DNA of 64,000 nt from an uncultured bacterium (lineage in GTDB: Bacteria > Patescibacteriota > Minisyncoccia > Phycocordibacterales > GWA1-40-21): the NCBI GenBank assembly GCA_903831305.1, contig CAIKXE010000002.1, positions 15,934-79,933 on the forward strand. Direction: 5' to 3'. Below the pieces are notes generated by a model that saw only the letters and a list, made by a program, of their open reading frames with translations, was not told the origin of the DNA and did not search any database. Position numbers and translations under genes: made by a program. This document shows, in pieces, positions 20,603 to 60,521 of this stretch (positions are counted from its first letter, which is position 1; each line of letters begins with the position of its first letter).

Positions 20603-20673
20603 TCTTACTTTTGTGCCGATGGATGGAATTGAACCATCTTTTGAGGCTTATGAGTCCCCCGTTCTACCATTGA
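20603..20673 (-). tRNA. tRNA-Met (CAT) elongator-type (or tRNA-Ile2)
   Basis: Minus strand GCCGATG-TA-GTTC-AATGGTA-GAAC-G-GGGGA-CTCATAA-GCCTC-AAAA-GATGG-TTCAATT-CCATC-CATCGGC-A. Perfect acceptor, D and T arms with canonical GG and TTC loops; one mismatch at the base of the anticodon stem. Confidence 0.75.
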
Positions 20674-20812
20674 ACTACATCGGCGTTATTTAATTTTCCC
20701 TAGAATCTACCAACAACTACATCGGCGTTATTTAATTTTCCCTAGAATCTACCAACAACTACATAGGCATATTACTTTACCCTATGTCCAACACCAATAA
20801 CTACATCAACAT
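20664..20812. repeat. Tandem 42-bp repeat array (3.5 copies) of tRNA-Met 5'-fragment plus promoter-like sequence
   Basis: Period-42 units CTACATCGGCGTTATTTAATTTTCCCTAGAATCTACCAACAA, two identical and two degenerate. On the minus strand each unit reads TTGTTG-18nt-TAAATA-ACGCCGATGTAG, a -35/-10 pair followed by the first 12 nt of the tRNA and a degenerate D arm. Confidence 0.8.
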
Positions 20813-20894: not shown

Positions 20895-20965
20895 AGCGGG
20901 GTAGAGTAACAGTAATTCGCGAGGCTCATAACCTTGAGATGTACGTGCGAATCGTACCCCCGCAA
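20895..20965 (+). tRNA. Initiator-like tRNA-fMet (CAT) with non-canonical D and T loops
   Basis: AGCGGGG-TA-GAGT-AACAGTA-ATTC-G-CGAGG-CTCATAA-CCTTG-AGAT-GTACG-TGCGAAT-CGTAC-CCCCGCA-A. It has a 1-72 mismatch and an A11-T24 pair like bacterial initiators. It lacks G19 in the D loop and TTC in the T loop. Confidence 0.55.
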
Positions 20966-21065
20966 CAATTAATTATTTTTGTGATCTAGTACTTGTTATT
21001 GGTGTATTTTATTGCTCAAATGTAGATTTTGTGTATAATAATGAGGATCTCATTTTTTTGAGATT

Positions 21066-21380
21066 CATCGCCACGCGGGCGTAGCTCAACGGTAGAGCAC
21101 TCCCCTGTAGACGTGCAGCTTTCCGCCGAGATGCGGATTGAAACTCTCTGGGATAACGGTGAAGGCTAAGTTCCATTTTGGAATATGCGAACACCGTGGG
21201 AACTCTTGTGAGATTTGGGGCCATCGGTCCCGAGTGAAACGAGGGAGCGCCGTAGAGACTAGATACCGGAGTACCCTAACTCACTGTGTGTGAAGGGTAA
21301 AGATATAGTCCATGCCACTATGAAAATAGTGAATTAGTGCACGGGAGAGGCCGTGGGGTCAGCACCCATCGCCCGCGCCA
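21066..21380 (+). tRNA. tRNA-Asp (GTC) interrupted by a group I intron; exons 21066-21099 and 21340-21380, CCA encoded
   Basis: 5' exon GCGGGCG-TA-GCTC-AACGGTA-GAGC-A-CTCCC-CTGT; 3' exon CAC-GGGAG-AGGCC-GTGGG-GTCAGCA-CCCAT-CGCCCGC-G-CCA. The spliced anticodon loop would be CTGTCAC, with G10, C38 and G73 as in tRNA-Asp. Confidence 0.75.
21100..21339 (+). ncRNA. Group I self-splicing intron (about 240 nt) in the tRNA-Asp anticodon loop
   Basis: Contains the conserved group I core elements R (GTAGAGACTAGA, 21253-21264) and S (AAAGATATAGTCC, 21297-21309), which pair as P7 (GACTA/TAGTC). The 5' exon ends in U and can pair CUGU with the intron GCAG at 21106-21109 including a U-G wobble (P1). The intron ends in G. 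There is a P9-like hairpin CCACTATGAAAATAGTG. Confidence 0.75.
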
Positions 21381-21383
21381 GTA

Positions 21384-21406
21384 AAAGCCCTGAATAAGGG
21401 CTTTTC
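21384..21406 (+). terminator. Hairpin with flanking A/T tracts directly after tRNA-Asp
   Basis: AAAAGCCCTGAATAAGGGCTTTT. Confidence 0.5.
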
Positions 21407-21409
21407 TGT

Positions 21410-21587
21410 TGCGCGGGCGAAGCAAGCAAATGATTTTGCTTGCGTTGGGTTGCTGACCGGCGGAGCCAGATTTTTTCAGTAGAAAAAATAGGTGAGCCGG
21501 TGTCCAACCCGAGCCGAGCGACGGCGAGGGGAGAGGTGCGGACAAGCACCCACATTGTTTTGTGCGAGGGAGAGTCCATCGCCCGCG
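21410..21587 (+). ncRNA. Structured ncRNA-like element (about 178 nt) closed by a tRNA-Asp acceptor-like stem; identity unknown
   Basis: The 5' end CGCGGGCGAAGC and the 3' end GGGAGAGTCCATCGCCCGCG copy the tRNA-Asp acceptor and anticodon-stem sequences but lack D and T arms. The interior folds into at least four hairpins. It is followed by the terminator at 21591-21625. Confidence 0.45.
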
Positions 21588-21590
21588 GTT

Positions 21591-21625
21591 AAACCACCCC
21601 AGAAGGGGTGGTTTTTGTTTTTTAA
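21591..21625 (+). terminator. Rho-independent terminator
   Basis: AAACCACCCCAGAAGGGGTGGTTTTTGTTTTTT. Confidence 0.85.
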
Positions 21626-21679
21626 TTATTTTGTTTGTGTTATAATATGAAGGGTTATTAGTAATTTATTTATAAAAAT

Positions 21680-22093
21680 ATGGGTACTCAAAAAATTGTC
21701 TGGGATGAAAAATATAGTGTGGGGGTAGAGGAGATTGATAACCAGCACAAGCGGATGTTTGAAGTGATAAATGAATTATTAGAGGCTATAAATACTAATA
21801 CCACTGAGGATCATCTCGGTAATATCATTGACGGGCTTATAAAATATAAGGTATTTCACTTTGCGACTGAAGAAAAATATTTTAAGCAGTTTAATTATGA
21901 AGGAGCAGAAGAACATATACTAAAGCATAAAGAGTTTAATGATAATTTGATGGTTCTAAAGGATAAGTACCCCATCTATAGTGTTGAATTTGCTTTTGAA
22001 TTAGTTGATTTTCTTGAGGATTGGCTTATTGATCACCTCATGATTGTAGATCAAAAATATAAAAAGTGTTTTGCTGAACATGGCTTAAAATAG
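21680..22093 (+). CDS. Bacteriohemerythrin / hemerythrin-like metal-binding protein
   Basis: WDEKYSVGVEEIDNQHKRMF is the classic hemerythrin HHE motif; 137 aa. Confidence 0.8.
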   Translation: MGTQKIVWDEKYSVGVEEIDNQHKRMFEVINELLEAINTNTTEDHLGNIIDGLIKYKVFHFATEEKYFKQFNYEGAEEHILKHKEFNDNLMVLKDKYPIYSVEFAFELVDFLEDWLIDHLMIVDQKYKKCFAEHGLK

Positions 22094-31513: not shown

Positions 31514-31589
31514 GCCAAGATAGCTCAGCTGGTAGAGCACGTCATTGGTAATGACGAGGTCCCGGGTTCAAACCCCGGTCTTGGCTCCA
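31514..31589 (+). tRNA. tRNA-Thr (GGT), CCA encoded
   Basis: GCCAAGA-TA-GCTC-AGCTGGTA-GAGC-A-CGTCA-TTGGTAA-TGACG-AGGTC-CCGGG-TTCAAAC-CCCGG-TCTTGGC-T-CCA; all stems perfect. Confidence 0.9.
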
Positions 31590-31714
31590 ATCACAAACAA
31601 ACTTATTTGTTTGTGCCGGGGTTTGAACGGCGGAACGATGTTTTGATAGCAATTAAAACCGTGAGCCGGTGCCCAGTCTAAAATTTTTGACGCGAAATTT
31701 TAAGGCGAGGGCTA

Positions 31715-31732
31715 GTCCCGGTCTTGGCTCCC
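31715..31732 (+). repeat. Direct repeat of the tRNA-Thr(GGT) 3' end (GTCCCGGTCTTGGCTCCC), 126 bp downstream of the tRNA
   Basis: A 17/18 match to tRNA positions 60-76. A second T-arm-like fragment CCGGGGTTTGAAC lies at 31616-31628. Confidence 0.6.
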
Positions 31733-60156: not shown

Positions 60157-60378
60157 ATGAAAAAAGATATACATCCAACATATTTTCCTAAGTCAGAGAC
60201 CACTTGTGCTTGTGGGGCTAAATTTAACGTCGGTTCTACCAAGGAGGCTATTGAGGTAGAAATCTGCGCAGTTTGCCACCCATTTTACACTGGTAATGAT
60301 AAGGTGCTTGATACCGCTGGCCGGGTGGAGAAGTTCAAAGCTCGCAAAGCCGCTGGAACCAAGAAAACCGCTAAATAG
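60157..60378 (+). CDS. rpmE: 50S ribosomal protein L31
   Basis: [10 protein letters not shown]...CACGAKF...[10 protein letters not shown] zinc-ribbon form. Confidence 0.9.
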
Positions 60379-60381
60379 CGA

Positions 60382-60497
60382 ACTGGGAGTAGAATATTGT
60401 GTTTGTGAGCCTCTCGGAAGACGACGGTCTGAGAGTGAGAGATTTTTTCAGCAGAAAAAATACTCGTGCTCAAAAAACATAATATTCTACTCCCAGT
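60382..60497. repeat. 115-nt imperfect palindrome (20-bp arms) enclosing an AT-hairpin motif, between rpmE and prfA
   Basis: Arms ACTGGGAGTAGAATATTGTG / CATAATATTCTACTCCCAGT; inner hairpin GATTTTTTCAGCAGAAAAAAT at 60441-60463. Confidence 0.7.
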
Positions 60498-60521
60498 TTT
60501 GTTTTATGCTACAATAATCAC

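Follow-up and report, generated by a model that had tools for sequence, protein, structure and literature searches.

Nucleotides 21075-21380 (plus strand) of the window, by which the whole analysed stretch of 64,000 nucleotides of DNA is meant, very probably make up a functional Patescibacterial gene for tRNA-Asp(GUC), which is split by a group I ribozyme of 231 nt, lacking ORFs and inserted between U35 and C36. The fold of the intron is established by covariation, and the exact junction by natural intron-less alleles. We infer that the copy hosted in the window catalyses its own excision, by analogy with the in vitro splicing published for a homologous tRNA-Asp 35/36 intron. Introns of this class have been published and validated experimentally, and the window gene adds one more example.

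The tRNA-Asp(GUC) gene and its exons

The 5' exon (21075-21108, plus strand), defined by the sequence and by ARAGORN run on spliced and unspliced forms, reads GCGGGCG-UA-GCUC-AACGGUA-GAGC-A-CUCCC-CUGU. It carries the 5' strand of the acceptor stem, the D arm, the 5' strand of the anticodon stem and residues C32 U33 G34 U35. The 3' exon (21340-21380, plus strand), defined by the sequence, ARAGORN and the intron-less alleles, reads CAC-GGGAG-AGGCC-GUGGG-GUCAGCA-CCCAU-CGCCCGC-G-CCA. It begins with C36 A37 C38, continues with the 3' strand of the anticodon stem, the variable loop and the T arm, and ends with the 3' strand of the acceptor stem, G73 (21377) and an encoded CCA (21378-21380). Exons joined at 21108/21340 are called tRNA-Asp(gtc) by ARAGORN, and correspond to a mature tRNA of 75 nt, CCA included.

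Aspartate identity in E. coli and yeast is set by G73, the anticodon G34 U35 C36, C38 and G10. All these elements are found at the locus, as G21377 (73), G21107 U21108 C21340 (anticodon), C21342 (38) and G21084 (10). The sequence-only reading of this DNA had described a complete tRNA-Asp(GUC) cloverleaf in two halves, as well as a spliced loop CUGUCAC accompanied by C38, G10 and G73. Both descriptions hold: the two halves are read in the sequence, ARAGORN agrees on the joined exons, the intron-less alleles read CUGUCAC and the three residues have been located. The gene limits that it gave, 21066-21380, are correct at the 3' end, but the gene starts at 21075, nine nucleotides further on, and the spliced tRNA, announced as 74 nt long, counts one nucleotide more.

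The T loop is not canonical. It reads G54 U55 C56 A57 G58 C59 A60 (21358-21364), and does not match the motif U54 U55 C56 R57 A58, in which U54 and A58 are near-universal. The GUCAGCA loop, with its G54 and G58, is conserved across the tRNA-Asp clade to which the window gene belongs, in more than 120 loci. Residues G54 and G58 might mark a decaying gene; yet the loop is conserved at all these loci, and intron-less copies of the clade reach 59-61 bits when matched to the tRNA model RF00005. On sequence grounds, the variant is best regarded as a deviation within tRNA-Asp, and not as evidence against a tRNA-Asp.

The gene is flanked by sequences encoding a NAD-dependent DNA ligase (ligA), gatC, gatA and a hemerythrin-domain protein, and by genes for a type IV pilus ATPase (pilB-like), a platform protein (pilC-like) and pilins. 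Such a set of genes is consistent with a small bacterial genome. A phage origin, considered in view of the several tRNAs and the AT-rich composition of the window, was discarded, the neighbours being chromosomal genes; no match to the region 21040-21640 was found by blastn in 50,697 phage records.

Intron fold, covariation and splice junction

The intron spans residues 21109-21339 (plus strand). A covariance-model search with the Rfam group I intron model RF00028, the first check suggested by the sequence-only reading, returned a full-length match (21084-21332, model positions 1-253) with 46.5 bits and an E value of 1.3e-10, which nonetheless falls 3.5 bits short of the gathering score (50). 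This threshold is exceeded by the close relative found at locus L206, with 54.8 bits.

Homologues were searched by scanning genomes, one per species, for the core GTAGAGACTAKATACC, and at least 120 loci were identified. Among the 120 core matches listed, at least 33 were placed in tRNA-Asp(gtc) by ARAGORN; the others are mostly found in tRNA-Asn (often mis-called Thr-tgt), Tyr, Ser and Leu. Exact junctions, with CUGU preceding the intron, a G at the intron end and CAC following it, are found in at least 46 tRNA-Asp genes, when the genome scan and the metagenome loci retrieved through the tRNA 3' half are considered together. An alignment of 47 sequences was assembled from 43 non-identical tRNA-Asp genes, the window gene and three published tRNA-Asp introns. 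The structure scored on it was drawn by hand, and comprised the cloverleaf, P1, P2, P3, P4, P5, P5a, P6, P8 and P9, with P7 treated as a pseudoknot; in control sets the partners were slid by 1-3 columns. Pairing is found in 95.5% of the cells, versus 38-46% in the slid controls. Changes on both sides occur in 45 of the 71 pairs, and none of 500 shuffles reached the observed values. Compensatory changes are found in P2, P3, P4, P5a, P6, P8 and P9. The tRNA is similarly supported: the four stems of the cloverleaf, each 99.6-100% paired, exhibit compensatory changes, and exon stems covary across the intron. The anticodon stem, the strands of which are set 231 nt apart by the intervening ribozyme, is paired in all sequences (100%), and four of its five pairs covary.

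P1 (21105-21118, plus strand) is formed by the exon residues CUGU (21105-21108) and the guide GCAG (21115-21118), and its four pairs are invariant in all 47 sequences. U21108 pairs with G21115 as U·G, and the 5' splice site is directly 3' of U21108. In all 47 genes the guide is located 6-10 nt into the intron. P3 pairs 21146-21151 to 21266-21271 (plus strand); it is 97.5% paired, and five of its six pairs change on both sides. P4 (21156-21161 with 21192-21197) encloses P5 (21165-21166 with 21187-21188) and P5a (21171-21174 with 21180-21183), all on the plus strand; in the alignment the three helices are 95-100% paired and feature compensatory changes. P6 (21198-21199 with 21250-21251, plus strand) closes the region 21198-21251, and its extension exceeds in length that of most relatives. 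The R element GTAGAGACTAGA (21252-21263, plus strand) includes J6/7 and the 5' strand of P7 (G21255 and G21257-A21261), and is invariant in the 47 sequences. The S element AAAGATATAGTCC (21299-21311, plus strand) includes J8/7 and the 3' strand of P7 (21306-21311). The P7 pairing between the two is likewise invariant in the 47 genes. No P7.1 or P7.2 is visible between P7 and the 3' strand of P3 in the window sequence. In the P8 hairpin (21272-21299, plus strand; 21272-21277 with 21294-21299) good support is found for the four outer pairs, while the two innermost pairs drawn are specific to the window sequence, and are formed in only 7-15 of the 47 genes. The P9 hairpin (21316-21331, plus strand) is capped by a GAAA tetraloop, and all its six pairs covary, with changes on both sides. 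The intron ends with the terminal guanosine (omega G) G21339 (plus strand), followed by the 3' splice site, and a G is found at this position in all 47 homologues.

These data bear out much of what had been read from the sequence alone. The R and S elements that it proposed to pair as P7 are in place, and the core fold built on their pairing is substantiated by the double changes in P3 and P9 and by the retention of P7. The intron ends with G, as had been stated. The 4-bp P1 also stands, including the pairing of the last U of the 5' exon to an intron G, but this G is residue 21115 and not 21106, which is off by nine; by the same amount, the intron is shorter than the 240 nt originally counted.

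The only ORF found in the intron is a mechanical frame of 51 codons starting with TTG (21138-21293), which overlaps the ribozyme core, and was discarded as a homing endonuclease candidate. With its 231 nt, the intron is too short to accommodate a homing endonuclease gene.

The gene is easily overlooked. At default settings ARAGORN reported six other tRNAs in the window and missed the tRNA-Asp gene, which was missed also with option -i at default threshold; at the gathering score, Rfam reported no intron at the locus. When the intron option was combined with -ps90, ARAGORN recovered the unspliced gene, as a tRNA-Asp(gtc) spanning 21075-21380 and containing an intron of 231 nt. The misses of default tools were not taken as absence, because the gene is recovered both by the E-value Rfam search and by -ps90. 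They would speak for a chance resemblance, in which no intron exists and the tRNA halves are unrelated fragments; but the E value of the intron model match, and the 47 homologues sharing the same architecture, make this extremely improbable. As a consequence of similar misses by default ARAGORN and by Rfam at the gathering score, a Patescibacterial genome may seem to lack tRNA-Asp, and completeness estimates may be distorted. This lesson has been published already, and the window gene repeats it.

Splicing of the intron would proceed as follows. The precursor would be transcribed as a single RNA, in which the guide GCAG and the exon CUGU would form P1 and present the U21108·G21115 wobble. An exogenous guanosine bound at P7 would attack 3' of U21108, and G21339 would then take the same P7 site. 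The freed 3'-OH of U35 would finally attack after G21339, joining the exons in the loop CUGUCAC and releasing the intron. The exons would be held together by the anticodon stem closing around the intron. P10 is weak, consisting at most of ACG/CGU, and is marginal; P1 has 4 bp only. Both features, along with the RF00028 score 3.5 bits below gathering, are points against a functional reading.

The 35/36 insertion point, proposed from the sequence alone, fits all 47 genes. The intron-less tRNA-Asp found at the metagenome loci L169 and L205 is identical to the joined exons of the window gene, and thus to the predicted product. The same intron could be set two nucleotides upstream, at 33/34, with splicing after U21106, an intron ending with G21337 and a tRNA-Ala(UGC) host. 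ARAGORN accepts also this junction, as tRNA-Ala(tgc), and either boundary has a U just before the 5' splice site and a G as the last intron residue. Several observations, however, render this placement highly improbable. No guide is present that would pair with the sequence ...CCCU and place U21106 in a U·G, and hence no P1 would be formed. Alanine identity requires G3·U70 and A73; the window gene has G3-C70 in its acceptor stem and G73 as discriminator. A 33/34 boundary requires intron position -3 to be a G, which eight of the 47 homologues lack, so that this boundary is not general. Intron-less alleles reading CUGUCAC also argue against it. The ambiguity is not peculiar to the window. Both ARAGORN and tFind make the Ala(UGC) 33/34 call on some published tRNA-Asp genes, a mis-call noted in the source paper (PMC13011429, Table 1), where the sequenced spliced products of a homologue feature the 35/36 junction.

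Relatives and published 35/36 introns

The closest relatives of the window gene, at loci L210, L206 and L178, are 89-93% identical to it. Six near-identical metagenome copies differ by a single SNP, G21220A, found in two copies and located in the P6 extension. Identical copies of the gene are carried by several metagenome contigs, up to 80 kb in length. The closest loci combining intron and tRNA, among the matches listed, are labelled Candidatus Vogelbacteria, Paceibacterota, Nomurabacteria and Saccharibacteria, which, along with the gene content, suggests a Patescibacterium of the Paceibacteria/Parcubacteria type. By a crude motif test, the intron is found in only about 32 of the 120 metagenome loci that feature the 3' half of the window tRNA. 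About one fourth of one tRNA-Asp clade hosts the intron, which is therefore sporadic, a patchiness expected for a group I intron.

The locus might alternatively be a tRNA pseudogene hosting a decayed intron unable to splice, with an intact second tRNA-Asp gene located elsewhere. The RF00028 score below gathering and the odd T loop would agree with decay, and another tRNA-Asp is possible, as 64 kb of the genome are in view. On the other hand, the elements of the catalytic core are all intact and identical to those of the relatives; compensatory pairing is kept, also in the three relatives 89-93% identical to the window gene; intron-less genes of other genomes match the exons with 100% identity; and the one SNP distinguishing the six near-identical copies falls in the peripheral P6 extension. 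Decay is consequently an improbable explanation, and a functional split gene is favoured.

The sequence-only reading regarded an Asp(GUC) host with a 35/36 insertion as unusual. [quoted passage not shown] The Asp intron assayed is from GCA_001029755.1, and mutating its terminal G to C blocks exon ligation (PMC13011429). In the same work, a survey of 4,934 complete genomes yielded 28 insertions at 35/36, of which Patescibacteria account for 19. Subgroup IA was assigned to 25 of the 28; IC introns make up 81% of all bacterial tRNA introns, and no tRNA intron of Patescibacteria was assigned to IC (PMC13011429). Preceding this report, tRNA intron classes had been expanded to 21 with tFind by Williams (2020; bioRxiv 10.1101/2020.01.27.920355).

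The window intron shares with those described by Nakagawa and co-workers the host tRNA, the insertion point, the exon context CUGU/CAC and a GUN anticodon, as well as the guide GCAG, the cores GUAGAGACUAGAUACC and AAGAUAUAGUCC and the lack of a homing endonuclease. Standard tools miss or mis-call both, with the same Ala(UGC) 33/34 ambiguity. The tRNA-Asp intron of GCA_023898525.1 (Paceibacteria) can be aligned to it over the full length, with 71% identity and shared cores; the first 14 intron nucleotides are the same in the two, and the common 5' end is agacgtgcagcttt. Full-length identity to two published Microgenomatia tRNA-Asp introns is 58%. Relative to the three published tRNA-Asp cases, the window intron resides in another genome, has a different sequence and features a longer P6 extension. 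T loops also differ, being GUCAGCA in the clade of the window host and UUCGAGU in the three published tRNA-Asp hosts.

Introns at 35/36 of tRNA-Asp are far commoner in draft genomes than the three complete-genome cases suggest, because at least 33 tRNA-Asp cases emerged from the scan, and at least 46 genes have exact junctions. The value of the intron is practical, and no open question is made newly testable by it.

Classical bacterial group I introns of tRNA genes interrupt tRNA-Leu(UAA) at 34/35 in cyanobacteria and plastids, tRNA-fMet at 33/34, tRNA-Ile(CAU) in Azoarcus and tRNA-Arg(CCU) at 36/37. [quoted passage not shown] It differs from them in host tRNA and insertion position. The P7 and J8/7 sequences of these introns, as found in Azoarcus, in Anabaena and in the tRNA-Leu of Nostoc, are very similar to those of the window intron.

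A structured element trailing tRNA genes

A second structured sequence, 177 nt in length, is found downstream of the tRNA-Asp gene, at 21411-21587 (plus strand). It is not part of the intron, and is defined by its fold and by covariation. It is preceded by a hairpin (about 21384-21406), and followed by a strong terminator (21591-21624). The predicted fold is far more stable than those of shuffled sequences (z = -5.5). The first part of the element consists of GCGGGCG, which is the 5' strand of the tRNA-Asp acceptor stem, followed by the hairpin H1. The left arm UGGGUUGCUGAC differs by one inserted U from the family consensus AUGGGUGCUGAC, which is the exact antisense of the T loop and the T-stem 3' strand of tRNA-Asp. 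The core includes H2, made by GGCGGAGC, an apical hairpin and GUGAGCCGG, with a tandem G·A internal loop, and H3, which has a GACG cap. The right arm CCAUCGCCCGCG is a copy of the 3' end of tRNA-Asp.

Another element of this type is found in the same window at 31582-31732, after a tRNA-Thr(GGU) gene. Its left arm CCGGGGUUUGAAC is antisense to the GUUCAAACCCCGG sequence of the tRNA, and its right arm copies UCCCGGUCUUGGCUCC. At many metagenome loci the element follows tRNA-Asp, sometimes in tandem; at other loci the elements feature handles matching tRNA-Thr(CGU), tRNA-Met or tRNA-Thr(GGU). On sequence grounds, the family appears to be built of a conserved core (H1, H2 and H3) joined to handles copied from the particular tRNA located upstream: a 5' strand able to pair as in an acceptor stem, a left arm antisense to the T loop and T-stem 3' strand, and a right arm repeating the tRNA 3' end.

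Twenty-five trailing elements aligned by MAFFT were found paired in 87.4% of the cells, versus 38-45% in slid controls, and 46 of 54 pairs changed on both sides. Figures for 46 covariance-model matches, the alignment of which is fitted to the model, are 89.5% and 52 of 54 pairs. Because of this covariation, selection plausibly acts on the fold of the element, either as RNA or as single-stranded nucleic acid. No Rfam 15 family corresponding to the element was detected, either over 20950-21700 (E ≤ 10) or at ten further loci (E ≤ 1), and nothing relevant to it was found among open-access papers.

Several known RNAs were compared to the element and discarded. Weak matches to alpha_tmRNA are found at the tRNA 3' end, the spacer and the acceptor-like strand, with 17.7 bits in the window and 17-20 bits at L206 and L210. 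The order of T arm, acceptor 3' strand, CCA, spacer and acceptor 5' strand (21353-21424) is reminiscent of a two-piece, circularly permuted tmRNA. A tmRNA, either one-piece or permuted, was nonetheless rejected: the pair is G3-C70 and not G3·U70, there are neither a tag ORF nor pseudoknots, the 17.7 bits fall far short of the 50 required for gathering, a long helix and inserted hairpins stand in place of the T loop, and no tmRNA was called by ARAGORN. RNase P RNA was rejected too; GAGGGAGAGUCC merely resembles CR-I, and is a copied segment of tRNA anticodon stem and variable loop. In an informal comparison of consensus features, no fit was seen with SRP RNA, 6S RNA, T-box, hammerhead, twister, guanidine-II, integron attC or IS110 bridge RNA. 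The element is not a decayed duplicate of the tRNA with its intron either, given the strong covariation and a core shared with elements trailing tRNA-Thr and tRNA-Met.

The tRNA-Asp gene and the 21411-21587 element may form a two-gene unit, the second half of which would represent a family of structured RNAs, not described so far, trailing tRNAs in Paceibacteria-like genomes. If the family is truly undescribed, it would represent a multi-copy, tRNA-matched structured RNA hosted by very reduced genomes, and a more interesting lead than the intron. The element could be a tRNA-specific mimic or decoy, or an RNA pairing with the T arm of the cognate tRNA. A link between the trailing element and the GUCAGCA T loop of the tRNA-Asp clade is conceivable, and both deserve a further look. 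The element could also be a small mobile element, or a recombination product targeting tRNA genes. Mobility or turnover is favoured by the patchy distribution among close relatives, by the occurrence of tandem and decayed copies, and by handles that track the adjacent tRNA.

Trailing elements of tRNA genes

The intron-split tRNA-Asp(GUC) gene is directly followed on its 3' side by a structured element (the trailing element, 21411-21587), preceded by a hairpin (about 21384-21406) and followed by a terminator (21591-21624). The element begins with an acceptor-like 5' strand, next to which is hairpin H1. Its left arm is near-antisense to the T loop and the 3' strand of the T stem of tRNA-Asp, and its right arm is a copy of the tRNA 3' end. 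The core includes two conserved hairpins, one featuring a tandem G·A loop, the other capped by GACG.

A second element (31582-31732) is located directly after the tRNA-Thr(GGU) gene (31514-31589). The left arm of this copy, CCGGGGTTTGAAC, is reverse-complementary to GTTCAAACCCCGG of the tRNA, and the right arm, TCCCGGTCTTGGCTCC, is a copy of the tRNA 3' end. As the cores of the two elements are homologous, and the arms match either tRNA-Thr or tRNA-Asp, they share a common core decorated by handles (the tRNA-copied and antisense arms) specific to the adjoining tRNA.

Organization and spread of the family

The elements belong to a multi-copy family found on many Paceibacteria-like contigs; the tRNA-Asp trailing element matched no family in Rfam 15. 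Covariation is strong, as the structure is 87-90% paired and double changes occur at 46-52 of 54 pairs in two alignments, one of 25 members (MAFFT), the other of 46 covariance-model matches fitted to the model. An alternative core, ACCGAUUGAGC...CAAUCGGUGUACUGUUCCUGUAAGGAAAG, is found in comparison loci L008, L047, L141, L142, L207, L209, L226 and L236, flanked by the same tRNA-Asp-derived handles. It includes a small hairpin, UUCC-UGUAA-GGAA, of which a compensatory variant, UUCA-UGUAA-UGAA, was detected.

Trailing elements are tandem or clustered in L159 (2704-3040), L184 (12556-12885), L208, L209 and L219, the latter hosting six matches within 12 kb. Truncated remnants accompany these copies (e.g., L223, L182). 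Taken together, the repeated copies and remnants suggest duplication, turnover or mobility of the elements. L237 features a minimal element of about 70 nt.

A long hairpin (60379-60505) is located 3' of a 73-codon ORF (60157-60378). Its perfect 18-bp arms (AACTGGGAGTAGAATATT / AATATTCTACTCCCAGTT) precede a T run, and its interior hosts a AUUUUUUCAGCAGAAAAAAU hairpin module, as in trailing elements. The family covariance model, R1, gave a partial match here (60437-60466, 20.3 bits), a resemblance that may reflect either kinship or coincidence.

T loops of tRNA-Asp and of a neighbouring tRNA

The T arm of tRNA-Asp (21353-21369) carries a non-canonical loop, G54 U55 C56 A57 G58 C59 A60 (GUCAGCA), replacing U54...A58. 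The same loop is found in L008, L010, L017, L039, L047, L054, L068 and L127-L246, and is kept throughout one clade of tRNA-Asp genes, whether the intron is present or absent. The related tRNA-Asp genes L044, L052 and L097 retain a UUCGAGU or UUCAAAU loop.

Two divergently oriented tRNA-Met(CAU) genes (20613-20684, minus strand; 20895-20966, plus strand) are found close upstream of tRNA-Asp. The plus-strand gene, scoring 48.5 bits, less than the minus-strand one, has an unusual T loop, UGCGAAU.
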